Part shown: positions 2,509 to 38,000 of the stretch, one piece after another
Position numbering within the stretch: the first letter of the stretch is position 1
Layout: each line of letters opens with the position of its first letter
IMG/VR virus record: IMGVR_UViG_3300046733_000343
DNA: 43,013 nt
Source of the DNA: a virus
Direction: 5' to 3' (one strand)
Position numbers and translations under genes: made by a program
The notes under the pieces: generated by a model
Databases searched by the model: none
What the model was told of the DNA's origin: nothing
The model's input: the letters and a program-made list of their open reading frames with translations, nothing else

Positions 2509-3225
2509 ATGGCTAGAGGTACGTCATTAGGACAGCTGATTGATGATTTGAGAGCGGAAGTTGGTCATTCCTTGCAGCCGAATTTAGGCAAGGCGACACG
2601 CGATGTTTTCATTAACATGCTGCAAAGAACGCAAAGGCGGTTGTGGGACGACTACAGCTGGCCTTTTCTTTCCATTACGCGCGACATCGCGATTAGTGCT
2701 GGGCAGCGTTACTATGACGTACCTAATGATCTAGTGTTTGAGCGCATCGAGCGCATGGAAACAAAACACGGAGATTACTGGTCAAAGCTCAAATATGGCA
2801 TTACCGCAGAACACTACAATCAACATGATAGTGATCGCGGCATTCGCTCGTCACCTATTCGTCGCTACGACGCATACGAAAACAATCAGATCGAAATGTG
2901 GCCGATCCCTTCTAACAACTCTGATGCTGCAACAGGCACAGACAGTGTTCGCGTTCATGGCATCAAGAATTTAAGTCAGTTTACCGGCGAGGCCGACACT
3001 GCGGATTTGGATGACCAGCTGATTGTTCTCTATGCTGCGGCAGAAATTCTGGCGCGTCAAAAGCAGGCTGATGCTCAAAACAAAATTGCGCAGGCTCAAG
3101 CGCATTACGCGCGTCTTAAAGCGCGTATGGCTAAGACTGAAACCTTTGTCATTGGCGGCGGTGAGCCAGACGGCATGTATCGCCCTAAAGGCCCACCATT
3201 GATTGCCACAACAGGAAATAGCTGA
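2509..3225 (+). CDS. Virion protein, head-tail adaptor / tail tubular A-like (position-based)
   Basis: 238 aa. It occupies the T7 gp11 position between the capsid and the large nozzle-like ORF, and its stop overlaps the next start (TGATG). Confidence 0.45.
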   Translation: MARGTSLGQLIDDLRAEVGHSLQPNLGKATRDVFINMLQRTQRRLWDDYSWPFLSITRDIAISAGQRYYDVPNDLVFERIERMETKHGDYWSKLKYGITAEHYNQHDSDRGIRSSPIRRYDAYENNQIEMWPIPSNNSDAATGTDSVRVHGIKNLSQFTGEADTADLDDQLIVLYAAAEILARQKQADAQNKIAQAQAHYARLKARMAKTETFVIGGGEPDGMYRPKGPPLIATTGNS

Positions 3226-5291
3226 TGCCTTATATTTTGGTCGAAGACTTCCGTGGCGGCTTAGATCGTCGGCGCATGAATGTCACAGCCGCTCCGGGTA
3301 CTTTGATCGAGCTAAAGAACGCGCACATCACGCGAGGTGGTGAGATCGAGAAGCGCCCAGCGTTTGTTGAGCTTGTTACTTTGCCAACTAATACCATTGG
3401 TCTAGCCGCTTCTGCTGGCCAGATTTACACCTTCGGGTCTGATGCAGCGTCTAGCGTCACTTTCCCAGCTGATACGCCGTCTAACGTGACTTACATTAGG
3501 TTGCAGCATCCTAGTGGCGAAGAACTGACTAACGTTTTAAAAGCAACGTTTTATAACGGTAAGGTATATGCAGCTGCGCAATTTGCCGATGGCCGAATAT
3601 ACCATTACTTTGATGGTGTGCGGATTACTGATTGGTTTGATGGTCGTGCGCGCAATACATTCGAGGTGACTGCCGGTACTGCTGGCGGGACTGCCGCTAC
3701 AGCTTCTTTCGAGGTGACTGGCGGCACAAGCAACCCTGGTGACGAGTTGCGGATTTTGCGGATTAACGCTGTCGATCTAATTAGTAGCCCTGTGTCTCAC
3801 AACGGCTCGAACAACCTAACAGCGTCTAATGTTGCAGCGGCTATTACCTCTGGCCCTAGCGACTACACAGCTCAAGCGGCTGGCAACGTGGTTACGATTA
3901 CAGCGCCTGCGGTCGGCATTACATATAACGGATACCAGCTTACTGCCGAAGTTGATGGGGCATTTACTGTTGGCAACATTTCTCACGCCTCTGGCGGTAT
4001 TGATAATGCTATAACAGCTATTACCGTCGATGGCGTTAACCTTATCGGAAATCAGGTGACTTGGGAGACTTCGCATACCTACACAGCACTAAAAATTGCG
4101 GAAGCTATAAATGATTTTGCATCTGGTCCTGAGTACGAAGCGACAAGCGTTAACCAGTTTGTAAACATAATATCTAAAGAAAGCGGATCGTCTCAAAACA
4201 ACAAGGCGGTGTCTATCACAACGAGCGGAAACGTCACTACAGCGTTTGACCCTGTTTCGCAGACTTACTTAGACGGCGGCGCTGATGCCTCTACAATCAA
4301 CGCATACAGCCCTGGGGCTTTTGTCATCCCGGTCAAAACAAAGATGTACGCGCTGTCAGACAGTTTGCTTCACTTTTCCGCGATAGATGATCCGACAGAG
4401 TGGAACGACACAACGTTGGGCGCGGGTTTTATCAACCTTGCTAACCACTCACGCGGTTCTGAAGACCTCAAGGCGATTGCGACATACTTTGACAATATTG
4501 CCGTTCTTGCTGAAGAGGCGATACAGATTTGGTTTGTTGATGCTGACGAAGCCCTCAATCAACAAATACAAGTTTTGCAAAACACTGGAACGATTGCGCC
4601 GGATAGTGTTGTCGAGTTTGGCGAGAACGACGTGTTCTACTTGTCGCTGTCTGGACTGCGCAGTTTGCGTTCACGCGACAGCTCCAACGCCGCGTTTGTT
4701 GGTGACATTGGCAACCCTATTGACGAGCTGATTGTTGACCAAATCCAAGCAAACCGATCTGTTGCAGAGCTGGCAAAGGCGACGCTCGAGCAACGTGACG
4801 GACGTTACATACTCGCTATCGGCAGCAAAATGTATGTGTTTAGCTTCTTTCCTTCATCTAAAGTGTCAGCTTGGTCCGTTTACGAGCCTGGGTTTGTTGT
4901 GGATCAATGGGCATATGATGGTCGGCAGACTTTATGCAGAAGCGGCAACAAGCTCTACTCATTGGGCGGTGAGAACGGCAACATTTATGACAGCTGCGAG
5001 GTTGTTGTTCAGATGCCGTTCTTGGATGGCAGCAGCCCAGCAACGTTTAAGGATTTAACGGGTATTGACGTCACTTGTGAAAACGTCTGGACAGTTTCGA
5101 TAGCCACTGATCCGCAAGATATAACGGCGTTGGAGGAAGTGGCGACAGTTTTCAAGACGACTTACGGGTTGGGGCGCGCAGCGGTCAACGGTTATACTAC
5201 GCACGTTGCTCCCAGATTGACGTGTGAAAAGCCAGGTCCAGCAAAGCTAGGAAACCTGGCAGTCCACTATACATCAGCGGAGAGTGGTTAA
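3225..5291 (+). CDS. Virion protein, tail tubular B / nozzle-like (position-based)
   Basis: 688 aa in the T7 gp12 position. It is translationally coupled on both sides (TGATG and TAATG). Confidence 0.45.
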   Translation: MPYILVEDFRGGLDRRRMNVTAAPGTLIELKNAHITRGGEIEKRPAFVELVTLPTNTIGLAASAGQIYTFGSDAASSVTFPADTPSNVTYIRLQHPSGEELTNVLKATFYNGKVYAAAQFADGRIYHYFDGVRITDWFDGRARNTFEVTAGTAGGTAATASFEVTGGTSNPGDELRILRINAVDLISSPVSHNGSNNLTASNVAAAITSGPSDYTAQAAGNVVTITAPAVGITYNGYQLTAEVDGAFTVGNISHASGGIDNAITAITVDGVNLIGNQVTWETSHTYTALKIAEAINDFASGPEYEATSVNQFVNIISKESGSSQNNKAVSITTSGNVTTAFDPVSQTYLDGGADASTINAYSPGAFVIPVKTKMYALSDSLLHFSAIDDPTEWNDTTLGAGFINLANHSRGSEDLKAIATYFDNIAVLAEEAIQIWFVDADEALNQQIQVLQNTGTIAPDSVVEFGENDVFYLSLSGLRSLRSRDSSNAAFVGDIGNPIDELIVDQIQANRSVAELAKATLEQRDGRYILAIGSKMYVFSFFPSSKVSAWSVYEPGFVVDQWAYDGRQTLCRSGNKLYSLGGENGNIYDSCEVVVQMPFLDGSSPATFKDLTGIDVTCENVWTVSIATDPQDITALEEVATVFKTTYGLGRAAVNGYTTHVAPRLTCEKPGPAKLGNLAVHYTSAESG

Positions 5292-5797
5292 TGTTTTTAC
5301 GCCATGCGGAGCCTCAAGACATTTTCACAGTCGCTCGAAATATGCGTGAACGTGACTTCCAAGAAATATCAGCACTTAGATATGACGATGATCGAAATGA
5401 AATGGCATACAACATTACCAATCAAATTGCAGAGTTTGAAACAGTATATGTTGTTGGAGATACGGAGCCAGTTGCAATTGTTTCATATCTTCCTGTTCGA
5501 CCTGGTGTCTGGAATTTGGGGATGTTTGCGACTGACAGGTTCAAAAGTGTAGGACTTTACCTGACAAAGCGCATCATTCGAGATATAATACCAGCATTAG
5601 ATCGAGCCAAAGCGCATCGGGTCGAGGCGTTCAGTATCGAAGGTTACGACGAAGTACACAGTTGGCTGGATTTTTTGGGGCTTGAAGAGGAATGCACGTT
5701 GGAAAGCTACGGAAAAAACGGTGAGGATTTCAAGGTTTTTTCTTGGGTGCGGTCAACAGAAGACAGTGTTGTCTGGCGCAATCGGAGGTTGAATTAA
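5291..5797 (+). CDS. Internal virion protein A-like (T7 gp13-like / GNAT-like fold suspected)
   Basis: 168 aa. The N-terminus LRHAEPQDIFTVARNMRERDFQEISAL resembles the gp13-family pattern from memory. It is the first gene after the nozzle-like ORF. Confidence 0.4.
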   Translation: MFLRHAEPQDIFTVARNMRERDFQEISALRYDDDRNEMAYNITNQIAEFETVYVVGDTEPVAIVSYLPVRPGVWNLGMFATDRFKSVGLYLTKRIIRDIIPALDRAKAHRVEAFSIEGYDEVHSWLDFLGLEEECTLESYGKNGEDFKVFSWVRSTEDSVVWRNRRLN

Positions 5798-8755: not shown

Positions 8756-10027
8756 ATGCCACGCCAAAACCCCTACATGATGGACCCTTTGCTGGCTCAA
8801 GGCTTTTCGAATTTGACGAAGGCTCTGATCGGTGATCCCGAAACAGATTATCAGGTGGCTAGGACAAACCGGGTCAACGAGCTTTTGCCTTTGGAAAAGC
8901 AACAAATGCAAGCGCAAATAGGTGGTACTAATGCTAGTGCAGCTGCGGCTAGGGCTTTGGAGACACTCCGTCAAGCGCAAACGTTGACTGAAAACCAGTT
9001 GCGCGACCCCCGTGTGCAGACGGAACTTGCCAACGCGAAGGCGACATTAGCATTAGCAGGCGAAAGGGACGCAAGTGCGGCATTCATCGGATCGCAGCGA
9101 GCTACAGAAGAGGCTCTTCGCACTCCAAGAGTCGACAAAATTAACGCAGAAGGCGCTGCCGCTACTGCTTTGGAGCAATCTAGGTTAGCGGATGCAATGT
9201 TTAGGGGAGCGCAGACCGCTACAGAAACTGCTCTTCGTACTCCAAAAGTTGGTAAAATTAATGCAGAAGGCGCTGCCGCGACTGCTTTAGAGCAATCTAG
9301 GTTAGCAGATGCAGCGCTTGCGGGAGCGAAGACTACTACAGAAACTGCTCTTCGTACTCCAACAATTGGTAAAACTAATGCAGAAGGCGCTGCCGCGACT
9401 GCTTTGGCTGCCGAAAGAAACTCCGCAGCAGACCTTAACAGAGCCAAGGCCGAATCCGAAGGCCGAATAATTCTTAACGCCGGTCAGACAATCGTGACTA
9501 CAGGTGCTGATGGGCAGCAACAAGAATACACTGCTCCAGAGACTGTCGAGGTAGTTTTAGAGCCTGGGGAGGAAGCCGTTGTTATAAATGCAGACGGCTC
9601 ACAGACACGGCTAAAAGGACCGGCAGGGACCGGAGACCCGAAAGATGCTGCTGCTCTTCTTGAAGGCATCGACGGCCAGTTAAATACATTCTTTGAATCA
9701 GAGGCATGGAGTAAAGTAAGCCCAACTTTACTACGGCGCATTCGATCTTCGATGACAGCGGCAAGTAAAGGACAAAACCTTACAGATGCTGCGGAAAAAA
9801 TACAGGCACTAATGTCTGATACCTATAAGGGCCAAAACATTGTCGAGCTTCAAGGTGGTTGGGGTGACGGTGCAGCATTTTACGTTCCAGGATACATTCT
9901 TAATTTTATTTCAGATGCGATTGCGGACAACAGCACTCCTAAAGCAAGTGCAATTGCCAAGGAATACGGGCTTTCACTTCAAGAGTCTGAATCTGTATTG
10001 AAGTTTTTAGGGGTTGAAAATGGCTGA
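8756..10027 (+). CDS. Internal virion protein with three tandem 39-aa repeats
   Basis: GAGGA RBS. 423 aa containing the repeats TE(E/T)ALRTP.(V/I)(D/G)K(I/T)NAEGAAATAL.... Confidence 0.55.
   Translation: MPRQNPYMMDPLLAQGFSNLTKALIGDPETDYQVARTNRVNELLPLEKQQMQAQIGGTNASAAAARALETLRQAQTLTENQLRDPRVQTELANAKATLALAGERDASAAFIGSQRATEEALRTPRVDKINAEGAAATALEQSRLADAMFRGAQTATETALRTPKVGKINAEGAAATALEQSRLADAALAGAKTTTETALRTPTIGKTNAEGAAATALAAERNSAADLNRAKAESEGRIILNAGQTIVTTGADGQQQEYTAPETVEVVLEPGEEAVVINADGSQTRLKGPAGTGDPKDAAALLEGIDGQLNTFFESEAWSKVSPTLLRRIRSSMTAASKGQNLTDAAEKIQALMSDTYKGQNIVELQGGWGDGAAFYVPGYILNFISDAIADNSTPKASAIAKEYGLSLQESESVLKFLGVENG
9104..9420 (+). repeat. Three in-frame tandem repeats of 117 bp (third partial)
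   Basis: Unit starts acagaa(g/a)(a/c)(g/t)gctcttcg occur at 9104, 9221 and 9338, exactly 117 nt apart. Confidence 0.9.
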
Positions 10028-13000
10028 CGGGTTTGGCAATCCATTTCTTGAAGAAGAAGATAAAAGCACTGATCCGTTTGAGAACCCTTTTTTAAAGAAA
10101 AAGAAAGATGGTTTTTCTAACCCATTTGTTAGCGACCTACCGGCGGAAACTGCAATCCCTCCTGTTGCGGCGATCAGTGAACCCTCCCCAAAAACTGACA
10201 TGCCGCCGGTAGACCCGACAGGTGGTTTCCGCAGCCCGACGTCTGGAGTGACTGAAACGAATGCGTTGCTGGCGCAGCAGATTGCAGATCAAAACCGCGC
10301 AGCGCAAATTGCTAATGCGCCTAATACAACTGAACTGGATTCTGTGTTTTACCCTAAGACTTTCGACCCGGCTGTTACCGGGCAGCAAGCATTAGAAACA
10401 GAACGCCAAAGGCTTGCAGATGTGATGGAACAACCGGGTCCAACGATTGCAAAGGCAGAAGCAAACGTAAACCCAAGCATATCACAGGTGCAAGGTCTTC
10501 CAGGAAACTACACCACGACCAGACAACCAGTTAGCGGGATGCCTATAAGTGATGCTGCGGCAGTAGACGAGATGGCTTTCGGCAACACCTACCAAATGCC
10601 GAACAATGCCGTTTCTCGCGGCACAGGACGGATGCTAGGTGTGTTCAATTTGTTTGCGCAGCAACTGGGTTTGAAAGATACCGGCGATTACATAGACCGT
10701 ATGCAAGAGCTTAATAGGATAATTCCAGAAGCTCCAAAAGACGTGCAAGATGGGCTGCGCGCAATCACAGACGAAAACAATACTTGGGGCGAAGCGTTCC
10801 GCGCTATGAAGGACAACCCTGGCGCTGTTCTCAGCGTTGTTGGCGAAAGCATTCCGCAAATGATCCCGAGCCTTTTAGCGGCTACAGGCACTACTCTGGC
10901 AACAGGTGGTAACATCTTTGCTGGAGCGGCAGCTGTTGGCGCAACGTCTGGCGCTATAGAGTTTGGTAATGTCCTTGATGAAGAGATTAGATCATCAGGC
11001 GTTGATTTAAACGATGATGCAGCAGTGCAAGAGCTGTTCGACAATCCAGAGTTTTGGGGTCGTGCTAGAGAGCGTGGCGCACGTCGCGGTATTGCAATCG
11101 GTCTCTTCGATGCTTTGTCGATGGGCATGGCTGGTAAGTTAGTCAACATGGCTAAGGTTCGCGGCAGCGGTCGCTTGGGGGTTGGCGGTGCGGCCACAGC
11201 TGAACTAGCCGGTGTGCAAGGCCCGTTAGGCAGTGTTGGCGAGTTTAGTGCGCAACTACTGGAACAGCAGGGCGGTTTCCGTGATGGCTTAAATCTTGGA
11301 GAGATTGCCTTAGAGGGCGTTGCTGAGATTGTTCCTGGCGCTGGTGAAGTTGCGGTTTCAACAACTGCGGGTGGTGATCCTGTCGCTCTTGCCGCAAAGC
11401 AAACCATGCTTGACATCGACAATGCTGAGTTTGCGACTACGCCAGAGCAAGAAGCTATTGCACTGTTGCAGCCGCAAGACATGCTTTTGGAAGAGCAAAT
11501 TGTTGACATGCAGATGCGCCTAAGATCACTGGGGCTGGATAAACTTGCATCAGTTTATGGAAGTTGGCTTGATCGACTGGACACAATAACCCCCAAAAAC
11601 CTAACGTTCTTGCGCACAAAAGTAGAAGAAGAAGAGCGCAAGGCAGCTGGCGTTGCCTCCCTAAACCCTCGAGTAGAAAACGTCATGCAGGATTATCTTG
11701 CAAAAGACGACTTAGAGCTTGCGCAGTTCAATGCAGCAATGAGCGACCCACGCACTAAGGACGTAATGGAAGACTTGGGGCGGAAGATGCAAATGATTGG
11801 GGACCGGCTACATGAGCTTGGCTATGACTATAAAACGGTTGCGTCAGACCCTAACGCTCCAGCTGCCATAAAGAAGGCAAGAGAGTTCCTGTCAAACGGC
11901 GGCATTGCAATGCGCCTGATGAAGCAGCTTAACGCTAACGTCAAAGGTTACAAAGGAAATCGCCAGGTCACAGATGAAGACTTAAACAAAACAATCGGAA
12001 GACTGCAAACCGCTTTAACCGTTGACGTTAAACCCCTTATTGAATCTGCCGTTCCCAATCCGTCAGTTCAGAGCACCATTGAAACGCCCACAGCTCCCGT
12101 AGCCGACGGTCCAATCCAGCCACCGTCGGCCAACTCGCAGCCGGTTAACGCGGCAAACCCTCCAGACTTGCCACCGCAATCGGCTGCACCTTCTTCTCCA
12201 AACGTTAAAACCGATGCACCTACAGCACCAGCGGTGCAAGAAACTGCGCCACCGCAGCCAGCGGCTCCTGTTGCAGAAGAGGCTCCAACCGTTAATCCGC
12301 AAGAGGCAGAGCCAGTGGGCCGAGAGGTTCCATCGAAGCCCGTCACCAGCGTACAAACGCCAGACGGACAGGCAAATTTCAATGTGCAGGGCAGGGTGAT
12401 CGAGCTTGCCGATCTAAAGCAGGCAACTGGCGACCTTCAACCGCGTGATCGATCAAGAAAAGAAAGCGCAGCATTAGCCAAAGAACGGGCAGGGTCCATG
12501 TTCAACCCAGCCCGGTTGCTGGATGATCCGACGTCTGGATCAGGAGCGCCGATCATTGCGCGTGACGGTACAATCATGTCTGGCAACGGGCGCGTCTTAA
12601 CTATGCAAGAGGTGTACGCAAGCCAATCGGATAGTCTCGCAAGCTACCGCGCTGCGTTAGAAGATGCTGGAATAAACACAGAAGGCTTTTCCCAACCAGT
12701 GTTTGTTCGGCAGCTGGCAGATGACATGACTGTGCAAGAGCTGAAGCGGTTTGCTGATTTGTCGAATACTGAGGCTCAAGCGCAGATGTCGATGACTGAA
12801 CGCGCAAGTCGTGACTCTACAAGATTAACGGATAGCAAGATCATCGATCTTTATCGCGGAGACTTTGACATCGATGCTGCCCAAAACCGGGGGTTTGTTA
12901 GCGAGTATGCAAAGAAAATTCTGTCACCTACGGAGCAAGGTGCATTCTTTAATAGTAAGGGCGAAATTAGCCAGGAGGGCATATCTCGCGTCAAAAATGC

Positions 13001-16000
13001 GATACTAGCATCCGCATTCGACAATCCAGATACGCTGGCAACCATGCTGGAAAGCAGCGACGAAAACATTAAAGCTATTAGTAATGCCTTCATGGCCGCT
13101 GCGCCTAAATTCGCACAGCTGAAAAAGCAAATTGCCGATGGTCGGACTGATGCGCAATTCGATATAACATCTGATCTGGCGGAAATGGCTAACTTAGTCA
13201 GCCGTTTGCGCCGTGAAGGGACTAAGCTGCAAGACTATTACAATCAGTCAGATATGCTTTCGCAACCGGACCCAGAGGTTCAGAGACTTGTTCGCGCTTT
13301 TTACAACGAAGGTCTTACCCGCGCAAATTCGACCAAGGCAATGAAGGATTTTCTGGATTTCTACACAACAGAAGCGTTACAGAAGGAAAGCGGCGGTCTG
13401 CTGCCAGATGAAACAACGGCATCAGATATAATTGAAGCTGGACGTCAACGTACTGAGGAGAAGCGCAGTGAAGCAAAAGGACAAAACCAGCCAGGACTTG
13501 AGCTTGCGGCATCAGGCAATGTCAAACGCGATGATGCGCGTGGCGAACAAGTACAAAAACGAAGAGATGCGGAAAGTGGCGAAAGAGCTGAAGCAGTTAA
13601 GCCAAGAGCCGAAAGCAAAGTAGATGACGCCCGATCCGAAAGTGAAGTGGAGCAAAGTCTCGAAGGTGTTGCAGAACTACGGGACACCGAAAGCACAAGC
13701 CCAGCCAATGCCGACACTCGAGAAGAAAACACAAGAGGCACAAAAGCTGGCCGCGTCACGATTGCGCAGTCCCAAACACTAAGGCAATCGCTTTACCGGG
13801 ATGCGTTTGATGATGCTGGATTTGACGTCAATACCGCAGTCAACCTACCAATTACCAATCAGTACAGAATATTGTCAAAACTGGTCAAAGAAAAGTTTGG
13901 CCTTAGTTTTGTTGAGAAGCCACAGCAAGGCGCTGGTTACGACCAAGTGAATGCTTTGCTCGATGCTTACCACAACTTACAGTGGATGACGCATACAATG
14001 GCAATGCCGAACAAAGCTATCGGCCTGGACGGTACGCTGGGCTTGGCGCTCCCGCAAAACGCTTGGGGCGGATACTTGGCCGCTTATGTGAATAAAGAAG
14101 CAACTACACCAGACTCATACCAGTCTGACGTGAACCCCGTAACTGGTCCAGTCATCTTAATGCCCGGTCGCTCGAACAGCTTCGCTCACGAATGGGGCCA
14201 TGCGCTAGACTACCATATCTTAGACCGGATCGGGAAAAACTGGGACCGAGGTGTCACTGGTCGTATCCGTACCAACCTTAAAAGTGGCGAAATGGTTTAC
14301 GCTGACAACGCGCCTCAGAATGTTGTCGAGGCAATGGGCGATCTTATGAACGCCATGTTTATGGACAACGCCGAGGTATCTGCCGAGATAATGAAGTTGG
14401 AAAGCGAAGTCGCAAGACTGCAAGCCAAGCAAGACAAGCGTACTAGCGGCAAACCTATTAAGAAGCTGGCCGACACGAAAGAACAGCTGCGGAAGTTACG
14501 CGAAGGTAGCACTAAGAAACCAATAGCTAAGTCGCAATACCGAAAGGATGCGGAGACATTTGCCACCGCAAACAAAAGTGACGTCAACTACTGGACCCGC
14601 CCAACAGAAATGTTTGCTCGAGCATTCGAGGCTTACATCGCCCGAAACGTGGAAGCGGCTGGCGGCAACACAGAGTTTATTTCATTTGAGAACGAAGCAT
14701 ACGAAATGGCTATGGATAAAGTTAAGGGTGGCGATGACCGCTTGGCGCTAACCTATCCTAACGACACTGACCGGATGCGGATATTCATGGCAATGGATCG
14801 GTTGATGGAGGAGTTGCGCGCTGACGTTATTCAAGAGGGTAAAGCCGCAGATGCACCCGGCGATACCGACATGATCGATGCGCAGGCAGAGTTTTACAAA
14901 GAAGTCGATCTGACAAAGAAAGAGCGCATCGGGATTATTGCCGATCAAAAGAGAGCCTGGAACGAACACAAGGTTATGCGGCAGAAGATTAGAAGCCGCC
15001 CACAGCGTTACAAGTCTGACTTAGCGCGCTTTCAAGATACAGCTGGTGTTGTCTTAATCAATACGAAGCGCGGCATCCTGTTTAACATGGCGAGTAGATA
15101 CAAAGATAATGCTCGCGCAAAAGCATTGATCGAGAGTGTCATCGCGCGGGTTGCTACCGATCCCGGCTCAACTGATAACCGCGTTACGGTATCGGGTGGA
15201 ACTTTTGAAGAGGCTGTGCGAGGCGCGTCTAGGCGTTACGCTGGTATATGGGCGGGATTGCTGGAGAAGCACAAGCTAGACAGCTTTGGCGCTTTAGATA
15301 ACAAGGAGCTCCGACTGTTCCTAACAAGTGATGAAACAACACAAGCAAATGCGCCAGACAGAATTAAGCGCGCAGCTGGTGACATCCGCAACAAGTTGCT
15401 GAACCCTATGTATGATTACATGCGTAAGAATGGTTTGGATGTAAATTACTTGCCAGAAGGCGGGTTCATGCCTCGCATGATGGACGCTCTTCTTGTTGCT
15501 GACAGTAAGGAAAACTTTGTAAACGGTAAGCCAGGAGAGAAAAAGCGCGGGGCAAAAGCGCTTTATTCTGACGTCATTTACGAAAATGAACTAGGCGTAA
15601 TCGACGTAGACGACGCAGAGCAAGCGTCGGCTTTGGTTAAAATGGCGAGAAGCCTTGAAGGCTCATTAGATGGAAGCACCGCAGATGCGGCTGCGGAACT
15701 AAAGTTTAAGCTGAAGCAAATAGAACGCGAAAGCGCAAAGCTGGATGATCCAGAGGTGGACCCAGGTGATGTTGAAGCCAGCATAATGCAGCTTCAAGAG
15801 GAAGTGGTGGACTTGCACCAACAGCTTTATGAAGATTTGCGTGATCCTTACAGTACAGAAGCTGCAAATGACTGGTATGATCGAATTGTGCGCCGTCAAG
15901 TTGGCGACATATCGCGTCACGGAGTGCAGGGTAGCTTCGCTAAATCTCGTAAGCTACCGCCAGAAGCCGACACATACATGGTGGATTTCTACCTCGATCC

Positions 16001-17651
16001 AACAGAAGCAATAACAAATTACATCTCAGGCGTTACGCGCAAGGTTGAGTATGAAAAACGCTTTGGCACAAAGACCGTTCCAAAAGGTAAGCGCCAACGG
16101 ACCAGTGGAAACTCTATCGATCCGGCAAGCAATGTTCACGACTTTATGAGCTACGTTTCTGAGGAAATGGCCGCAGCCGGCATGAAGGAACACGAAGTAC
16201 GCCAAATACAAAAAATTGTGGAAGTGGTTACTGGAACTGGAGCGCCAGCTGATTTTGCACTAGAAACCGTTTTAAATGCGCTTAATACGTTTGGCACTAT
16301 GGCTTTGCTTCCGAGGGCTGTCATATCCAGCGTTGCTGAACCGATGACGGCAGCTATTACAACTGGAAGCGTGACTGACGGGTTCCGTTCTTTTGCTTAC
16401 GCTCTGGACGAGTTTGCTACTTTTGTCAGAGGCCGGACAGCCAGAGAGCGCAAGCAATACTACAAACAGCTGGGCAGCGTATTGGGTGTGATCGATCTTC
16501 CAGAGAGCGGAGAAGTCATTGCAAACCGTGTCGGAGGTACAGCAGAGGACGATTCGAAAAACGCGCAGCGCCTTGGTCGATTCTTTTTTAGAACGGGTTT
16601 GGTCTCTATAACTAACGCGCAACGTCGTGGCAGCTTGCGGGTTGGAATACGCTACCTTGGTCAGCTTGGAGAGCAATACGCAAAGCCTGCCAGCCCAAGA
16701 ATGAAAGATCGAGCGCGTGAAGTTCTGCAAGACTTCGGAGTGCGTCCAGACGACATGGATCAGTTCGCAGATTTCATGATGAACCTGGAGAAGAATGAGA
16801 AAGGCATGTACGAAATTGACAGCATCATAGATCGATCTGGTGAGCTGTCAGACATGGGCGAGATACTGGCTCTTGCTACACGCCGGTTTACAGACCAAAC
16901 AATTCAAGACCCTAAGATCATTGACAGACCAATGTTTGCAGACAGCCCCGTGGGTAGAATTGTATTCGGCATCCAGTCGTTTGTTGCTGCATTCCAGCGC
17001 AATGTGCTGATTGCATCAGCAAAGCGTGTTCAGCGTGAATACGAAAATAGAGGCATAACGTCGGCAGCGCCTTACGCGGCCCTAAATGTTGCACTACCTC
17101 TTGGCGCGTTGTACTTGTCGCACACTCTTGTTTCTGCTGTACGCGAAATGCTGTTAAACCCCGACAAGTGGGAGGAAGAGAAAGAAGCCGACAACCTTGA
17201 AATGTACTTGCTTACTCTTGGCCTTTCTCGTTCTGGCTTCACTGGACGCATGGACCCGTTAATAAACGCAGCTACATCTTTAAAATACCAGTCAGACTTG
17301 TCGAACATGCTGGTAGGGGCTTCAGCTTCCTATTATGCCAGAGCCTTGCAAAGAATGATTTACCCGGCGTTGGGCACAAACAGTCCAAACACGGTATCTG
17401 CCGAGTACCAATTTGCCCGTGGTACTTATGATATGATTGTTCCGTTTGCTTTGAGTATCCTTGCCACGCACTCTGGGCTTGGCGGGGTTGCGCAAGCCGC
17501 AGCCGGCGCAACGGCAGCTGCTGGTTCGTCGCCGGGTGTTAAGCACTGGGTGCTGCGCAACGTAATATATCAACTTTATGATGAAGAGTATCGACCTGGG
17601 CGATCTGGGCGGAAAAAGAAGTCAGAGGAAAAGAAAGGCTTCAATCGTTGA
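10020..17651 (+). CDS. Giant multidomain internal-virion/ejection protein (polyvalent-protein-like; T7 gp16 position)
   Basis: Uninterrupted 7.6-kb ORF. ATG at 10020 (AGGGG 6 nt upstream) overlaps the upstream stop. Contains a ParB-like block (QPRDR at 12438-12452, SGNGR at 12579-12593) and a zincin block (HEWGH at 14187-14201, EMFARAFEAY at 14607-14636). Confidence 0.75.
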   Translation: MADGFGNPFLEEEDKSTDPFENPFLKKKKDGFSNPFVSDLPAETAIPPVAAISEPSPKTDMPPVDPTGGFRSPTSGVTETNALLAQQIADQNRAAQIANAPNTTELDSVFYPKTFDPAVTGQQALETERQRLADVMEQPGPTIAKAEANVNPSISQVQGLPGNYTTTRQPVSGMPISDAAAVDEMAFGNTYQMPNNAVSRGTGRMLGVFNLFAQQLGLKDTGDYIDRMQELNRIIPEAPKDVQDGLRAITDENNTWGEAFRAMKDNPGAVLSVVGESIPQMIPSLLAATGTTLATGGNIFAGAAAVGATSGAIEFGNVLDEEIRSSGVDLNDDAAVQELFDNPEFWGRARERGARRGIAIGLFDALSMGMAGKLVNMAKVRGSGRLGVGGAATAELAGVQGPLGSVGEFSAQLLEQQGGFRDGLNLGEIALEGVAEIVPGAGEVAVSTTAGGDPVALAAKQTMLDIDNAEFATTPEQEAIALLQPQDMLLEEQIVDMQMRLRSLGLDKLASVYGSWLDRLDTITPKNLTFLRTKVEEEERKAAGVASLNPRVENVMQDYLAKDDLELAQFNAAMSDPRTKDVMEDLGRKMQMIGDRLHELGYDYKTVASDPNAPAAIKKAREFLSNGGIAMRLMKQLNANVKGYKGNRQVTDEDLNKTIGRLQTALTVDVKPLIESAVPNPSVQSTIETPTAPVADGPIQPPSANSQPVNAANPPDLPPQSAAPSSPNVKTDAPTAPAVQETAPPQPAAPVAEEAPTVNPQEAEPVGREVPSKPVTSVQTPDGQANFNVQGRVIELADLKQATGDLQPRDRSRKESAALAKERAGSMFNPARLLDDPTSGSGAPIIARDGTIMSGNGRVLTMQEVYASQSDSLASYRAALEDAGINTEGFSQPVFVRQLADDMTVQELKRFADLSNTEAQAQMSMTERASRDSTRLTDSKIIDLYRGDFDIDAAQNRGFVSEYAKKILSPTEQGAFFNSKGEISQEGISRVKNAILASAFDNPDTLATMLESSDENIKAISNAFMAAAPKFAQLKKQIADGRTDAQFDITSDLAEMANLVSRLRREGTKLQDYYNQSDMLSQPDPEVQRLVRAFYNEGLTRANSTKAMKDFLDFYTTEALQKESGGLLPDETTASDIIEAGRQRTEEKRSEAKGQNQPGLELAASGNVKRDDARGEQVQKRRDAESGERAEAVKPRAESKVDDARSESEVEQSLEGVAELRDTESTSPANADTREENTRGTKAGRVTIAQSQTLRQSLYRDAFDDAGFDVNTAVNLPITNQYRILSKLVKEKFGLSFVEKPQQGAGYDQVNALLDAYHNLQWMTHTMAMPNKAIGLDGTLGLALPQNAWGGYLAAYVNKEATTPDSYQSDVNPVTGPVILMPGRSNSFAHEWGHALDYHILDRIGKNWDRGVTGRIRTNLKSGEMVYADNAPQNVVEAMGDLMNAMFMDNAEVSAEIMKLESEVARLQAKQDKRTSGKPIKKLADTKEQLRKLREGSTKKPIAKSQYRKDAETFATANKSDVNYWTRPTEMFARAFEAYIARNVEAAGGNTEFISFENEAYEMAMDKVKGGDDRLALTYPNDTDRMRIFMAMDRLMEELRADVIQEGKAADAPGDTDMIDAQAEFYKEVDLTKKERIGIIADQKRAWNEHKVMRQKIRSRPQRYKSDLARFQDTAGVVLINTKRGILFNMASRYKDNARAKALIESVIARVATDPGSTDNRVTVSGGTFEEAVRGASRRYAGIWAGLLEKHKLDSFGALDNKELRLFLTSDETTQANAPDRIKRAAGDIRNKLLNPMYDYMRKNGLDVNYLPEGGFMPRMMDALLVADSKENFVNGKPGEKKRGAKALYSDVIYENELGVIDVDDAEQASALVKMARSLEGSLDGSTADAAAELKFKLKQIERESAKLDDPEVDPGDVEASIMQLQEEVVDLHQQLYEDLRDPYSTEAANDWYDRIVRRQVGDISRHGVQGSFAKSRKLPPEADTYMVDFYLDPTEAITNYISGVTRKVEYEKRFGTKTVPKGKRQRTSGNSIDPASNVHDFMSYVSEEMAAAGMKEHEVRQIQKIVEVVTGTGAPADFALETVLNALNTFGTMALLPRAVISSVAEPMTAAITTGSVTDGFRSFAYALDEFATFVRGRTARERKQYYKQLGSVLGVIDLPESGEVIANRVGGTAEDDSKNAQRLGRFFFRTGLVSITNAQRRGSLRVGIRYLGQLGEQYAKPASPRMKDRAREVLQDFGVRPDDMDQFADFMMNLEKNEKGMYEIDSIIDRSGELSDMGEILALATRRFTDQTIQDPKIIDRPMFADSPVGRIVFGIQSFVAAFQRNVLIASAKRVQREYENRGITSAAPYAALNVALPLGALYLSHTLVSAVREMLLNPDKWEEEKEADNLEMYLLTLGLSRSGFTGRMDPLINAATSLKYQSDLSNMLVGASASYYARALQRMIYPALGTNSPNTVSAEYQFARGTYDMIVPFALSILATHSGLGGVAQAAAGATAAAGSSPGVKHWVLRNVIYQLYDEEYRPGRSGRKKKSEEKKGFNR

Positions 17652-17749
17652 GCAAAATAGATTTGGCCGGCCTAATTGGATTTGTGCTGGGAGCTGTTGC
17701 TGGATCATCGATCACCGTGGGCGCCCTAATGCTGCTTCACTGGTGGTGA
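17648..17749 (+). CDS. Possible 33-aa single-pass membrane peptide
   Basis: The TTG start overlaps the giant-gene stop (TTGA). It encodes MSKIDLAGLIGFVLGAVAGSSITVGALMLLHWW, one hydrophobic helix. It is very short and has a non-ATG start. Confidence 0.25.
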   Translation: MSKIDLAGLIGFVLGAVAGSSITVGALMLLHWW

Positions 17750-19311: not shown

Positions 19312-19725
19312 TTACCCTTTTAATATATTCATGACCTCGAGAGCCTTGGCTGCGGGAACCTTCATGTTCACGCGCAACCAGAAATTTTCGGCATCGCTCT
19401 CGATAGATTTGATTTCAAGCGTTGGCTGCTCGGCAGCGTTTGCTTGCGCGTCATAGTTAGGAAACAGCACGTCAACCTCAACATCTAGTGCGTCGGCCAA
19501 TTTGGTAAGGTTCTTTGGCGAAGGCACTGAACGGCCTCGGACGTACTGGCTGATCGAATCTCGACCCATCCCAGACGCGCGCGATAGATCGCTTTGTGAC
19601 ATGCGCTTTTGCATCATAAAATTGTACAGTCTTTTGCCAAATTCCTGTCTAGTGAGAATTTTTTGGCTGTAATCTATACTGTTGTCTGGGCTATTACCGC
19701 CCCTGGTCATTATCGATTTTGTCAT
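19312..19725 (-). CDS. cI-like repressor (XRE-family HTH)
   Basis: ATG at 19725 with GGGGAG RBS. FGKRLYNFMMQKRMSQSDLSRASGMGRDSISQYVRGRSVPSPKNLTKLADAL is a classic HTH_3 pattern. It is divergent from the cro-like gene. Confidence 0.8.
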   Translation of the reverse strand: MTKSIMTRGGNSPDNSIDYSQKILTRQEFGKRLYNFMMQKRMSQSDLSRASGMGRDSISQYVRGRSVPSPKNLTKLADALDVEVDVLFPNYDAQANAAEQPTLEIKSIESDAENFWLRVNMKVPAAKALEVMNILKG

Positions 19726-19878
19726 CTTACTCCCCAAGCAATCGACATCTTTTGACAGACAATGTGCATATATCTGCCAAATTGGCAATGTAATTTTTTT
19801 TAATAATTTACATTGACCCGCCACATGGGCTGTGCTTTTAATCACCAAATACGAATTTCTAACTACAAATGGCGCGTC
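19726..19878. promoter_or_regulatory. Immunity-region divergent promoter/operator segment
   Basis: Inverted repeat CAATGTAA (19786-19793) / TTACATTG (19808-19815) around a pure A/T 14-nt spacer. 13-bp palindrome TGCCAAaTTGGCA (19775-19787). + strand promoter candidate TTGACC (19813-19818), 18 nt, TTTAAT (19837-19842). Confidence 0.55.
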
Positions 19879-20112
19879 ATGAAGACAAACATATCTATTA
19901 ATACCAGACTTCTTGTCCGTGACTTCGGTGGGCTTACCGCAGCAACACACGGGCTAAACGAAGTAGGGCATCAAATCACTAAAAATGCAGTCGACAAGTG
20001 GCGCAGGCGTGAAAGCCTGCCGTCGGAGTCGATGCTGGCGTTTGCCGTGCTGGCAAAACAAAAGAACCAGCGTTTCGACTTGCTGGATTACTTAATAAGA
20101 AAGGGAGAGTAA
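19879..20112 (+). CDS. Cro-like / YdaS-type HTH regulator
   Basis: 77 aa, divergent from the repressor. LVRDFGGLTAATHGLNEVGHQITKNAVDKWRRRESLP fits the Cro/YdaS pattern. Confidence 0.6.
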   Translation: MKTNISINTRLLVRDFGGLTAATHGLNEVGHQITKNAVDKWRRRESLPSESMLAFAVLAKQKNQRFDLLDYLIRKGE

Positions 20113-29899: not shown

Positions 29900-32800
29900 T
29901 GGCACAACCACGAGATTACACACGGCAGTATAACTTCAACGATTATCAGGCTACGAGCCCCAGCGATCCTTTGCGCGGTTCTGAGGTTGACGGTGAGTTA
30001 AACGCGATCAAGCTGACGTTGGATGATTTGAATGCGAACATTGCGAAGATACAGCGCGACGATGGTAAGTTGGGCAACGTTTCTGTTCACAAGGATGCGT
30101 TTGACCAGGGTGCGTTAGCGATTATCAACAGTACGTTTACGCCACGCGGAAATTGGTCTGCGGCCGTTTCTTATGTTGTGAATGATGCTGTAAACTTCAA
30201 CGGTGCGACGTACGTTGCGACTGTTGCGCATACATCGAGCGCGGCTTTTGCGACTGACACGGCTGCATCACGTTGGTTGTTGATTGCGAATGCTGCTCTT
30301 GCTGGGACGAGTAGTTCTGTTGATAAATTTGAGGGCGACGGTTTAACGACTGCGTTTACGTTGTCGAACACTTATGCGAGTGAGACATCGTTTTTTGTTT
30401 TTGTTAATGGGGAGTTATTGAACCCTGTTGATGATTATACGTTATCCGGCACGACGTTAACGTTATATACGGCTCCTGGTTTGCCGACTGTTGCTGGCAA
30501 TGAGAATTTGATTGTTTGGGGTTCTAATGTTGTTGCGCAGGCGTCTCAGGATGCTGCGGAGGCTGCCGAATCGAATGCGAGTGGTTTTGCTGACGAGTCT
30601 GAGAGCTGGGCGTCGAAGACGAATGGCATTGTTGAGAGTACGGATTATTCGTCTAAGGCATGGGCGACGGGTGGTACTGGCGTTGATGCTGGTTCTGGTT
30701 CTGCGAAGGACTGGGCTACGAAGACTAGCGGTACGGTTGGCAACACGACTGAGTATTCATCGAAGTATTGGGCTACGCAGGGTGATGTACCCATTGTTGC
30801 GACGAACATTGCTGACGTTAATACTGTTGGCACGAATATCAGCAGTGTGAACACGGTTGCTGGTATTGACGCTAATGTTACGACTGTTGCGGTCATTTCG
30901 TCTGATGTTACCACGGTTAGCGGTATATCTGGTAATGTTAGCACTGTAGCTGGTATTTCGTCTGACGTGACCACGGCTGCGGGTGACAGCGTTGATATTC
31001 AGACGGTTGCTTCGAAGTCTGTAGAGATTGGTCGTCTCGGTACGGCTGATGCTGTTTCTGACATGAACACGTTGGGCACTGCTGCGATTGTTTCTGACCT
31101 TGATACTTTAGCTGACATATCGACTGACATTTCTACGGTTAGCGGAATTTCTGCTAATGTTACTACGGCTGCTGGTATTTCTGCTAATGTTACGACTGTT
31201 GCTGGTATTGCGTCTGACGTTACTACGGTTTCGGGTATAAACACTGCGGTTTCGACTGTCTCTGGCATAGCGTCTGATGTTAGTACGGTTTCTTCGAACA
31301 ACGCTAATGTTACGACTGTTGCTGGGAACAATGCCAATATTTCCACGGTTGCGGGTGTAAGTACGGACGTCACTACGGTCAGCGGGATTTCTGGCAATGT
31401 TACGACTGTTGCCGGTGTTTCTGGAGATGTTACGACTGTATCGGGGATAGCGTCTGATGTTAGTACGGTTTCGACGAATAATGCTAATGTTACGACGACT
31501 GCTGGCTCGATCACTAGCGTCAACACGGTTGCTTCGAGCATAGCGGATGTAAACACGGCGGCTTCTAACATTGGTGATGTGAGTACCGTTGCTGGCGAGA
31601 TTGGTGTAAGTGGTGTTGTTACGATAGTTGCGGCTGCGATTACTGACGTTTCCACGGTATCTGGTGATATAGCTTCGGTTATTACGGCTGCTAATGACTT
31701 GAATGAAGCGGTGTCTGAGATTGACACTGTATCCAATAGCATTGCGAATGTTGATACGGTTGGCATTAATATTAGCGATGTGAACACGGTTGCTGGTAAC
31801 AATGCGAATGTTTCCACGGTTGCGGGAAATACGACTAATATCAATACGGTTGCTGGAATTGACGCTAATGTTACGACTGTTGCGGGGATTTCTAGCGATG
31901 TAACTACGGTTTCTGGTATTTCGAGCGATGTCACAACTGTAGCGGCTGATGTGACTGACATTGGTACTGTGGCGGCGAGCATTGCCAGTGTGAATACGGT
32001 TTCTGGTTCAATCAGCGACGTCACCACTGTTGCTGCAAATATCAATAACGTAAATGACTTTTTTGATGTTTATCGCGTCGGAACTTCAGACCCGTCTACT
32101 GGCAATGATAACGGCGATTTATTTTACAACAGCTCTTCTGGTATTTTAAAGGTTTACAATTCCACGACGGCTGCGTGGGAGCAGGGCGTAACTGCTGGTT
32201 CTGGTTTTTTAGCCCTTACTGGTGGGCAACTTACTGGCAACCTTACCTTCTCTGGATCGGAAACTGTTGATGGCCGTGACTTGTCCGTTGATGGGGCGAA
32301 GCTGGATGGCATCGAGGATGGTGCTAAAGCCGATCAAACAGCGGCTGAAATACGGGCGCTTGTTGAAAGTGCTACTGATAGCAATGTATTTACAGACGCA
32401 GACCACACGAAACTTTCTGGCATCGAAGCTGGCGCTGATGTCACTGATACACCAAACGTGGTTGCAGCACTAACTGCGGGTTCAAACATTACCATTGCCG
32501 CTAACGGTACTATCTCTGGCGCTGCTCAGTACACCCACCCATCTCACCCTGGCGATGACATCAATATAGATACTGGTGCGTTGAGTGGTGCGACAGTTAT
32601 CTCTGACCTAGACTTTAACGTAACCACCGACACTTTAGGTCACGTTACGGATGCTAATGCTACTTTTTCTACCCGAAACATAACCCTAGCAAACTTGGGC
32701 TACACTGGCGCAACTAATGCCAACCATATAACCAATAACAACCAGCTAACCAACGGCGCTGGCTACACAACGTACTCGGCAAACCAGAGTTTAGATACGA

Positions 32801-33282: not shown

Positions 33283-33293
33283 GGAATATCTAA

Positions 33294-34772: not shown

Positions 34773-34782
34773 GGATAAAAAT

Positions 34783-36225: not shown

Positions 36226-36238
36226 TAAGGAGGCTATA

Positions 36239-36514
36239 ATGGCTTTATCATCAGGAAGTGGCGGCGGCATCACAATAGCTAAACAGGTAAGTGGTAATGT
36301 AGTGCTATATACGGTCCCGGAAGGGAAAACTTTTGAAGGGCATCTGTGGAATAACAGTAGTACGGGACCCGGTTGGATTAACGGGCAGCAACTGCGCTGG
36401 CCCTATAGCAGCAGCTATTTTGCACAAACCTATTTACCTATCACCTTAACCGGGGGTGATGAAGTTAAAGGTGATCCAAGCGGGGACACTTGCATCGTAG
36501 GGGTTGAAAAGTAA
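36239..36514 (+). CDS. Hypothetical small fibre-module protein (91 aa)
   Basis: AAGGAGG RBS. The stop is coupled to the next start (TAATG). Confidence 0.55.
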   Translation: MALSSGSGGGITIAKQVSGNVVLYTVPEGKTFEGHLWNNSSTGPGWINGQQLRWPYSSSYFAQTYLPITLTGGDEVKGDPSGDTCIVGVEK

Positions 36515-37029
36515 TGCACGAGTATCAATTAACCATACATGATGACTTGACTTCTACTTTGGTTTTTGGCTCCCAATCACCAGAGGAGGTAACTGATAGC
36601 GATAGCGACTTCACGCCTAATACGTTTGTTGCAAGCAGTCACATCAAGATTCCTAACTTTGATTTCTTATCAATGACTTCACCTGTTTTTAGATTTACTA
36701 CAGAAGAAATGGTTGAAGCATTTGTGATAGGGAATCAGAATCTTTTAAAATCTGAATCTAAGGGTGCGTTGTCTATCCCAACGACTCCAGATGAAGAAGC
36801 TGTGGAGGTTGCCCCTGAATTTCCAGAGATCATTGAAACTCAAGCAAACATTACCAGAAGCAAGCGGAACGTGCTTTTGATGGAATGTGATTGGACGCAG
36901 GCGTCTGACACTCCGCTATCAGATGAGGTAAAAGCTTTATGGGCTACATACAGAACAAGCCTTAGAGACCTATCTGGCAGTAGTAACTGGCCTTTTCTTG
37001 AAGAGGCTGATTGGCCTACTAAACCTTAA
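36514..37029 (+). CDS. Tail-fibre assembly chaperone-like protein
   Basis: The C-terminal KRNVLLMECDWTQASDTPLSDEVKALWATYRTSLRDLSGSSNWPFLEEADWPTKP matches the remembered phage fibre-chaperone pattern (R..LL..DW....D.PL....W..YR..LRD....WP). Confidence 0.5.
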   Translation: MHEYQLTIHDDLTSTLVFGSQSPEEVTDSDSDFTPNTFVASSHIKIPNFDFLSMTSPVFRFTTEEMVEAFVIGNQNLLKSESKGALSIPTTPDEEAVEVAPEFPEIIETQANITRSKRNVLLMECDWTQASDTPLSDEVKALWATYRTSLRDLSGSSNWPFLEEADWPTKP

Positions 37030-37064
37030 GTGTCGATTGATACGGTAAACAGAAAGACTGATAA

Positions 37065-37259: not shown

Positions 37260-37263
37260 AATT

Positions 37264-37904: not shown

Positions 37905-38000
37905 ACGAGGGGATTACATTGTGTATGACGAGGATATGAGAGTTGTGATTATCACCCACCACAAACGTTATGCCATTGAGTATGCTAGGAGTTTGAAAAA

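Follow-up and report, generated by a model that had tools for sequence, protein, structure and literature searches.

The stretch of DNA analysed here (the window) is the IMG/VR virus record IMGVR_UViG_3300046733_000343, 43,013 nucleotides (nt) in length, and the subject of the analysis is a giant gene on its plus strand. To judge by its gene content, which is detailed further below, the phage is temperate and short-tailed (a podovirus). The giant gene extends from an ATG at 10020 to a stop codon at 17651 as one uninterrupted open reading frame (ORF) of 7.6 kb, which encodes 2,543 amino acids (aa) and takes up 17.8% of the genome, in agreement with the 18% given in an initial annotation that had been made from the sequence alone. 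In the program-made ORF listing the frame opens at a TTG codon (10014..17651); the ATG at 10020, which lies 8 nt behind an AGGGG motif and whose frame overlaps the end of the upstream gene, stop codon included, by 8 nt (ATGGCTGA), is most plausibly the start of the giant gene. This start/stop overlap indicates translational coupling of the giant gene to the upstream gene, p423. Full-length homologues with 84–94% identity were present on independent metagenome contigs, and the ORF is thus neither a chance reading frame nor an assembly fusion or artefact, which confirms that the gene is real. A megablast search against phage genomes returned zero matches. Additionally, a short ORF (17648–17749, plus strand; 33 codons from a TTG start), which overlaps the giant gene at its stop codon, would encode a single hydrophobic helix (MSKIDLAGLIGFVLGAVAGSSITVGALMLLHWW).

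The giant gene, its parts and p423 are given below, with the basis of each assignment in brackets (pLDDT being the predicted local distance difference test score of the AlphaFold models).

8756..10027, plus strand: upstream gene p423, 423 aa, translationally coupled to the giant gene
10020..17651, plus strand: giant protein gene, complete, 2,543 aa, last gene of the structural/internal-protein operon (ORF listing, homologues, synteny)
10020..10139, plus strand: tandem peptide motifs, three FxNPF copies with charged spacers, aa 1–40, predicted to be disordered (motif positions, model)
10140..10373, plus strand: Pro-rich disordered segment (DLPAETAIPPVA...PPVDP), aa 41–118 (model; sequence conserved in close relatives)
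10377..12059, plus strand: N-terminal helical module, aa 120–680 (all-helical model, pLDDT of ~80)
12066..12287, plus strand: Pro/Ala-rich disordered linker, aa 683–756 (Pro plus Ala fraction of 0.52 over aa 701–750; pLDDT <50)
12372..12716, plus strand: DdrB-like ParB/sulfiredoxin-superfamily domain, aa 785–899 (Pfam PF18763, ddrB-ParB)
12717..13484, plus strand: post-ParB helical region, also in P1 DdrB, aa 900–1155 (BLASTP, PHROG, BFVD)
13485..13751, plus strand: highly charged disordered linker, aa 1156–1244 (charge content, pLDDT)
13752..14879, plus strand: zincin-like (gluzincin-type) domain, aa 1245–1620 (motif conservation, model, Pfam LPD1)
14880..17648, plus strand: large helical body of the core, of the gp16/internal virion protein D class, aa 1621–2543 (model, BFVD matches)
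16959..17141, plus strand: most hydrophobic helices of the core, aa 2314–2374, candidate membrane-inserting helices (Kyte-Doolittle hydropathy, long helices in the model)
17433..17648, plus strand: C-terminal hydrophobic Gly/Ala-rich helix (aa 2472–2491) followed by a basic tail (RPGRSGRKKKSEEKKGFNR) (hydropathy)

All of the blocks that the initial annotation had listed (the FxNPF triplet, the Gly/Ala-rich segments, the Pro/Ala linker, the ParB-like block, the charged linker, the HEWGH block and some 900 mostly helical residues at the C-terminus) were recovered at about the positions it had assigned to them.

The C-terminal ~1,300 residues (aa 1245–2543) constitute the core of the protein family. 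An AlphaFold model of aa 1245–2444 (mean pLDDT of 76.8, predicted template modelling score of 0.75) was compared with BFVD by Foldseek, which produced 44 matches at E<=1e-3. Where these carry a name, it is with few exceptions that of an internal virion, core or structural protein of a podovirus or of a polyvalent LPD protein, while the others are unnamed or uncharacterised metagenomic proteins. They include two uncultured-phage LPD proteins (template modelling (TM) scores of 0.78–0.81), the structural protein of Pseudomonas phage KPP25 (E 7e-14), the putative internal virion protein of LKA1 (E 4e-11), the internal core protein of Ralstonia RSB3, the internal virion protein of Burkholderia JG068, 'internal protein D' of Bordetella BB8, 'internal virion protein D' of Erwinia pEp_SNUABM_12, internal virion protein C of Aeromonas PS and a 1,401-aa 'lysozyme' of Marinomonas CPP1m, with the internal core protein of Acinetobacter Acibel007 falling just past the cut-off (E 6e-3). 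The annotated internal virion and core matches were obtained at E values of 4e-11 to 1e-6 with a probability of 1.0 and TM scores of 0.25–0.5. T7 gp16, a protein of 1,318 aa, goes by the name internal virion protein D, and the likeness to it extends to the size of the core (~1,300 aa), to the combination of a putative enzymatic head with a long helical body, and to the position of the gene, which closes the run of internal-protein genes downstream of the adaptor and is the last and largest of that run. Since the assignment draws on position, size and predicted-fold similarity to annotated relatives, the core is termed gp16-class here, which stops short of calling it a demonstrated homologue of T7 gp16. 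The initial annotation had placed the gene at the T7 gp16 position; this is borne out by its place at the end of the internal-protein operon and by the model matches to internal virion protein D, but not by sequence, as no significant match to T7 gp16 itself was obtained. Further differences from T7 gp16 are the lack of an SLT domain, the ~1,240 additional N-terminal residues with predicted effector modules, and the temperate nature of the phage. Neither an SLT nor a lysozyme Pfam match was found in the giant protein, while some family members carry PF01464.

A search with aa 1245–2543 identified at least 145 protein clusters that have this core, most of which comprise proteins of 2,000–2,300 aa labelled LPD1 and ddrB-ParB. 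Many are located on contigs of 40–48 kb, the size of a phage genome, and some on large bacterial contigs (Sphingopyxis, Cohaesibacter) that are presumably prophages. In other members the N-terminal half contains, instead of ParB, an ART-PolyVal, SLT (lytic transglycosylase), GGDEF, glucosaminidase or M23 domain. The giant protein consequently fits the logic of polyvalent proteins as set out by Iyer et al. (PMC5512222), in that a constant, ejection-type chassis appears to be combined with exchangeable N-terminal enzymes. The possibility that 'core-alone' proteins of ~1,300 aa represent stand-alone gp16-like genes was rejected at the one locus examined, on the P0065 contig, a polished long-read sequence in which the giant gene (L003 7358–14128) is split by frameshifts into pieces of 498, 77, 40, 153 and 1,375 aa, the 77-aa piece being a ddrB-ParB fragment. 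Short family members in databases should therefore not be taken as natural stand-alone cores unless checked.

The head of the core (aa 1245–1620) contains HEWGH at aa 1390–1394 (nt 14187–14201), and Pfam LPD1 (PF18796) matches aa 1518–1601 (nt 14571–14822) with an E value of 4e-14 and a score of 52.9 bits (cut-off of 27). LPD1 was matched by all 17 of the 17 trimmed members of the family. A putative third zinc ligand, E1530, lies inside LPD1 within PTEMFARAFEAY. In an alignment of 45 sequences, extending to 26% identity, H1390, E1391, H1394 and D1397 are invariant, as are Y1524, E1530, R1534 and E1537 within PTEMFARAFEAY. The AlphaFold model places three short strands before the HExxH helix (model numbering 144–160) and E1530 (model E286) on a helix (model 284–302), 136 residues past HExxH, and this predicted strand-then-helix arrangement is the layout of a gluzincin. 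When a profile of the trimmed domain was compared with the PDB, the catalytic domain of anthrax lethal factor was obtained below threshold (E 0.08), with HEFGHAVD aligned to HEWGHALD. Similarly, Pfam ATLF gave sub-threshold matches in three of the 17 members (best E of 0.007), located on the Glu-bearing helix; the weak lethal factor matches cover both halves of the motif. Profiles A1, A2 and A4 gave nothing significant against the PDB, yielding coiled-coil and design noise in addition to sub-threshold lethal factor. The zincin identity is well supported by motif conservation and predicted topology, short of independent confirmation at the fold level, and Pfam LPD1, which passages of Iyer et al. 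list among the domains of unknown function (PMC5512222), appears to be the zinc-ligand half of a protease-like domain.

The second module with a sequence-based assignment is the ParB-like domain. The initial annotation had named the failure of searches to find a ParB fold as a result that would count against it; Pfam ddrB-ParB (PF18763) was found with an E value of 8e-24 and 84.5 bits (cut-off of 27.6) over profile positions 4–120 of 121. Two motifs, LQPRDR (aa 806–811) and SGNGR (aa 854–858), are recognisable, of which the former is conserved in alignment A3, while the latter is present in the family consensus and common to P1 DdrB. The model of this domain adopts an alpha+beta fold (pLDDT of ~88). 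By BLASTP, phage P1 DdrB aligns with aa 804–1090 (28% identity, E 5e-23, an alignment of ~310 aa), phrog_5143 matches aa 778–1231, and the BFVD matches of the model of the ParB region are 'DdrB-like domain-containing' and polyvalent proteins. On this evidence aa 785–899 are a complete DdrB-like ParB domain by sequence; NTP binding and hydrolysis or nuclease activity would be the biochemical hallmark of the family. The linker that separates it and its helical extension from the zincin-like domain contains 36–42% charged residues over aa 1151–1250, with a pLDDT of <50 from aa 1156.

The presence of two Pfam families defined for the class, ddrB-ParB and LPD1, upholds the assignment of the giant protein to the polyvalent proteins, and membership of this phage class (Iyer 2017, PMC5512222) is supported at the level of sequence, and like other members it would be delivered together with the DNA. 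Like other polyvalent proteins, it is a giant multi-domain polypeptide encoded beside virion genes, in which ddrB-ParB, LPD1 and a zincin are combined with low-complexity linkers and effectors are swapped among relatives. Several domains are present as is usual for the class, namely ddrB-ParB, the zincin/LPD1 domain and two further folded modules, with disordered linkers between them. In contrast to those proteins, the modules are here fused to a core of ~1,300 aa whose model matches gp16-class internal virion proteins, and the zincin is one that Pfam MPTase-PolyVal misses and whose Glu-bearing half is Pfam LPD1. The passages of Iyer et al. (PMC5512222) that were searched contain no mention of gp16 or 'ejection'.

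P1 DdrB is the closest parallel to the N-terminal cargo. The ParB domain and ~200 aa of the following helical region align between the two proteins, and an HExxH motif lies further downstream in both, although no similarity between the two zincin regions is detectable outside this motif. DdrB, which has been detected in P1 heads (PMC9024508), is a stand-alone myovirus protein of 995 aa that works with the separate proteins DarA, Hdf, DarB and Ulx, whereas its counterpart here is a module inside a podovirus protein of 2,543 aa. The closest proteins from isolated phages are those of Microcystis phage Mae-Yong1326-1, a syntenic 2,441-aa protein (UUJ74515.1) with 29% identity over aa 1194–2481, and of KPP25, whose structural protein matches aa 1991–2409 by tblastn in addition to the model match given above. 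The N-terminal halves of both differ from that of the giant protein, and Mae-Yong1326-1 lacks ddrB-ParB. The Mae-Yong1326-1 homologue (L001, OP028995, 8560–15885) has been labelled 'peptidoglycan transglycosylase'; Pfam finds LPD1 only, with no SLT or lysozyme match at E<=1. Passages of the paper on this phage describe a flexible tail of 340 nm, yet its structural module resembles that of a podovirus; both the annotation and the assignment of morphology deserve a second look.

The initial annotation had also suggested that the domain combination is uncharacterised. This is true as far as experiments are concerned, but ParB and LPD1 occur together with the core in most of the family clusters and are already labelled by Pfam. 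A giant polyvalent virion protein at the end of a structural module is likewise not new. N4 vRNAP is one documented giant virion protein at the end of a podovirus structural module. Further precedents are the DarB-like proteins of the temperate Burkholderia podoviruses JC1 (gp69) and Bcep22 (gp75), which are giant, multi-domain, take up about one fifth of the genome and are encoded by the last gene of the virion module; mass spectrometry showed the 4,515-aa protein of JC1 to be part of the virion, and it has been regarded as cargo that is ejected to counter restriction (PMC9144972). Unlike the protein studied here, they contain a DarB-type methylase/helicase rather than DdrB-ParB. The giant protein is therefore one more uncharacterised member of a populous known class and not a new kind of system. 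The contribution of the analysis is the evidence for polyvalent cargo on what appears to be an ejection protein of the gp16 class, together with the interpretation of LPD1 as one part of a zincin and the features of a possible N-terminal leader described next.

Three FxNPF copies are located at aa 5–9, 20–24 and 32–36 within an N-terminal segment (aa 1–118) that has a pLDDT of <50 over most of its length and a short predicted helix at aa 80–99. Among relatives (the P0001–P0170 set), most carry two to four N-terminal tandem copies of a short hydrophobic/acidic peptide, which is alike within one protein and different among relatives, even at 84–94% overall identity; the variants include IFNPF, LGLSQKY, DALGFP, DEFGFPL, FFNAL, LDFRP, GLFDDLVP, SFDDLIP and others. 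In a strict repeat test, in which a 5-mer starting within residues 1–10 had to recur 10–35 aa further on, one mismatch being allowed, 62 of 128 full-length proteins were positive, compared with a mean of 1.2 (maximum of 6) after shuffling and 0–7 at internal offsets. A multivalent docking or loading signal is a possible function of these repeats. FxNPF was also considered as a signal common to other virion proteins and was rejected, as the motif is present in no other structural protein of the window.

The helical module that follows (aa 120–680) has no Pfam match. Its conserved, Gly/Ala-rich core (aa ~195–450, nt 10602–11369), in which the Gly plus Ala fraction is 0.24–0.40 over aa 251–450 and helices are moderately hydrophobic, was detected by exhaustive phmmer in 1,045 representative clusters at E<=1e-3 and in 293 at E<=1e-10. 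The matches nearly always lie within the first ~500 residues, and most are in proteins of 1,400–3,900 aa. Three of the matching proteins were scanned with Pfam; two have classical polyvalent architectures, one consisting of LPD22, the Gly/Ala module and ART-PolyVal, and the other, DarB-like, of the Gly/Ala module, an N6-methylase, a Strawberry-notch helicase and LPD38, while the third has no Pfam match. Judged by its distribution among sequences, the Gly/Ala-rich module seems to be a widespread 'head' of phage polyvalent proteins that has escaped annotation.

No other structural protein varies nearly as much in close relatives as the product of the upstream gene, p423 (49–50% identity versus 90–99% for its neighbours), whose conservation in more distant relatives is limited to ~50 N-terminal residues (MPRQNPYQMDPLLAQGFSNLTKALIGDPETDYQVART). 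It holds three tandem repeats of ~40 aa (ALRTPRVDKINAEGAAATALEQSRLADA...). The type of p423 was compared with that of the motif in the giant protein: NPF occurs with type A and GFP with type C, while type B pairs with two motifs. A one-to-one link between p423 and the N-terminal motif was thus borne out in part only, as one upstream type accompanies two different motifs; the pattern suggests a co-evolving docking signal. Taking these features together, we offer, tentatively and with more doubt than conviction, a joint reading in which the first ~450 aa (repeats and Gly/Ala module) would form an undescribed general leader for loading or translocating giant ejected phage proteins, the repeats docking multivalently on a fast-evolving oligomeric partner, with p423 as the candidate, much as encapsulin cargo-loading peptides do, and in which a protease resembling lethal factor would head a widespread gp16-class ejection protein, with Pfam LPD1 as the half that holds the zinc ligand. 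On this reading the Gly/Ala module would serve mostly giant proteins whose cargo is unrelated (ParB, ART, DarB-like methylase/helicase).

Considering the whole of this evidence, the product of the giant gene is probably the largest of the internal virion (ejection) proteins of a temperate podovirus, a chimera in which N-terminal effectors have been placed on a gp16-class chassis. The chassis would comprise the C-terminal ~1,300 aa, with a zincin-like head (HExxH and a Glu on the LPD1 helix), a long helical body, moderately hydrophobic helices and a basic tail; the putative N-terminal additions are, in order, the peptide motifs, the Gly/Ala module, the Pro/Ala linker, the DdrB-like ParB domain with its helical extension, and the charged linker. 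The T7 proteins gp14, gp15 and gp16, which are stored at the portal, are ejected and assemble into a tunnel through the envelope; in gp16, an enzymatic N-domain specific to the phage is joined to a universal part that reaches into the inner membrane and the cytoplasm (PMC8954989). P1 DdrB resides inside the phage head as a component of the Dar system (PMC9024508, PMC12810830, PMC5512222), by which incoming DNA is shielded from type I restriction (PMC9024508, PMC12810830). By analogy with these systems we infer packaging, ejection, membrane insertion as a channel, protease activity and anti-restriction. The giant protein would be packed in the capsid on the portal, alongside the smaller internal proteins encoded just upstream, and would exit through the tail ahead of the DNA, whereupon the helical core may refold to extend a channel over the periplasm and inner membrane in the manner of T7 gp16. 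The ParB-like effector would be carried into the cell, where it would meet the incoming DNA at the earliest moment and may help it to evade restriction, like the P1 Dar proteins (DdrB, DarB). The zincin may cut the giant protein at its flexible linkers and thereby free the modules, or may cut an envelope or defence protein. Autoprocessing is the role that Iyer et al. favour for the zincins of polyvalent proteins (PMC5512222).

Several results weigh against this interpretation. The BFVD matches to internal virion proteins have TM scores of 0.2–0.5 with a large root-mean-square deviation, which is expected for flexible helical proteins and is weaker than a domain-level superposition. Foldseek returned nothing from the PDB (best E of 0.095), including no solved chain of the T7 core/ejectosome, and comparison of a 45-sequence profile with T7 gp16 by hhalign gave a probability of 4% and an E value of 0.01 over 71 collinear columns. 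Nor did the complete 1,200-aa model, admittedly a poor probe as a multi-domain helical query, retrieve a solved zincin from the PDB; the zincin block of the initial annotation thus stands as to its invariant HExxH...E, its strand-then-helix model and its sub-threshold similarity to lethal factor, but not as to a match with a solved fold. Pfam MPTase-PolyVal does not match the giant protein, and the same model misses P1 DdrB too. The hydrophobic helices that had been noted near the C-terminus are present, but are only moderately hydrophobic: in 19-residue Kyte-Doolittle windows, aa 2314–2374 reach maxima of 1.3–1.45, and the maxima over this region and aa 2472–2491 (1.3–1.5) lie below the usual transmembrane cut-off of 1.6, which makes these stretches amphipathic or weakly hydrophobic helices and not transmembrane helices of the classical kind. 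Furthermore, the presence of the giant protein in virions and its ejection are matters that we infer rather than observe, and the anti-restriction role would follow by analogy to P1 DdrB, itself poorly understood.

Four other explanations were considered. The first, which is unlikely although it deserves serious consideration, retains the ejection protein and assigns the zincin to breaching of the envelope (acting on peptidoglycan cross-links, Lpp or an outer-membrane or periplasmic protein) as the counterpart of the N-terminal lytic transglycosylase of gp16, rather than to self-processing. The zincin heads a core of ~1,300 aa just as SLT heads the 1,318-aa gp16 (PMC8954989), no Pfam peptidoglycan hydrolase was found in the giant protein or in the nine other structural-module proteins scanned, and a secreted toxin protease, anthrax lethal factor, comes closest in sequence, if only weakly. 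Conversely, family members with an additional SLT, glucosaminidase or M23 domain retain an intact zincin, so that a wall hydrolase cannot simply take its place; resemblance to the known families of peptidoglycan peptidases was not found, and the stated preference of Iyer et al. is for autoprocessing (PMC5512222).

It is less probable still that the protein is a purely structural core or ejection protein whose ParB-like and zincin-like blocks have degenerated into scaffolds without catalytic function or into parts that bind DNA. In the 45 sequences, which extend to 26% identity, HExxH and E1530 are invariant, LQPRDR and SGNGR are kept in the ParB-bearing members, and the N-terminal half is swapped for bona fide enzyme domains (ART, SLT, GGDEF), which argues for a cargo or effector role. 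These observations have to be set against how poorly the DdrB-type ParB is understood, P1 DdrB being listed as aiding the incorporation of DarB into the capsid (PMC9024508), against the binding of DNA by the C-terminal part of T7 gp16, gp16-C (PMC8954989), and against the frequent DNA-binding function of ParB folds.

That the gene product is not a virion protein, but a cytoplasmic polyvalent protein or toxin expressed late or in the lysogen (e.g. for superinfection exclusion) from beside the structural genes, is very improbable. Such a function would be in keeping with the position of the gene, the last before the integrase/repressor boundary, which is a frequent site of moron-type genes. However, the 8-nt overlap and translational coupling tie the gene to the preceding gene of the structural operon, its fold matches are to internal virion and core proteins, the same position is kept across divergent phages, and the KPP25 homologue is annotated as a structural protein. 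Finally, a tape-measure or other tail component is hardly credible, in spite of the length, helical nature and Gly/Ala-rich hydrophobic segments of the protein, the occasional BFVD match, short of significance, to a tape-measure or minor tail protein (E 0.3–0.7) and the 'tail protein' annotation of homologues in Alcaligenes phage Piluca, since the giant protein has no Pfam or PHROG tape-measure match, the adaptor is of podovirus type, the PHROG/Pfam scans found no tail-tube or sheath gene in the genome, and all significant structural matches are to podovirus internal virion proteins.

With the chimeric ejection protein as the preferred interpretation, the giant protein joins the computationally defined polyvalent proteins with the structurally studied ejection proteins of podoviruses, on sequence and model evidence. 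In this family, the ejection protein itself would be the vehicle for swappable early effectors. The ParB module, the zincin, the defined linkers and the N-terminal leader represent concrete constructs for studying the delivery of anti-defence enzymes with phage DNA, and the value of the findings lies in annotation and experiment design more than in surprise.

The remainder of the genome was annotated by PHROG and Pfam scans. The window ends in an exact 91-bp direct terminal repeat (1–91 and 42923–43013), and it therefore represents a complete, circularly closed phage genome of 42,922 bp. The genes around the giant gene are listed below.

18–968: likely scaffold protein, a guess from its position after the cut point of the record in the circular map, without a family match
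986–2038: major capsid protein (PHROG/Pfam scans)
2509–3225: SU10-type head-tail adaptor (PF24175, E 4e-13)
between the adaptor and the phrog_308 gene: 688-aa protein
5291–5797: phrog_308 'internal virion protein' (PHROG)
between the phrog_308 gene and the giant gene: four proteins of 204, 567, 209 and 423 aa
18091–19146, minus strand, opposite to the giant gene: tyrosine integrase
19312–19950, minus strand, opposite to the giant gene: helix-turn-helix (HTH) repressor
39227–40807: terminase large subunit, TerL (PHROG/Pfam scans)
40801–42876: portal (PHROG/Pfam scans)

Elsewhere in the genome, an exonuclease, a primase/helicase, a DNA methyltransferase and a 1,127-aa tail fibre are encoded; no phage RNA polymerase gene and no tRNA gene were detected in the genome. 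The same gene order was observed in seven related contigs (L004, L017, L018, L019, L021, L022 and L023) and in Microcystis phage Mae-Yong1326-1. Among relatives derived from genomes, the closest (48% identity) is a 41.5-kb contig assigned to the bin of a Pontibacterium metagenome-assembled genome; more distant copies of the giant protein are found in alphaproteobacterial genomes and in Vibrio hannami, where a prophage of strain KACC 19277 holds a relative (locus L015).

The capsid protein of one of these relatives, L018 (974–2020), weakly matches SU10_MCP. This match and the PF24175 adaptor of the window together indicate that the head-tail connector of this temperate phage group is related to the lineage of phage SU10. 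The intergenic region of ~440 bp between the giant gene and the integrase gene probably contains the phage attachment site, attP. Additionally, the G+C content is reduced to 0.43–0.45 at 32000–38000, compared with ~0.50 for the genome. This stretch covers the end of the 1,127-aa tail-fibre gene and the next two genes of ~490 aa, which suggests a recently exchanged host-range cassette.

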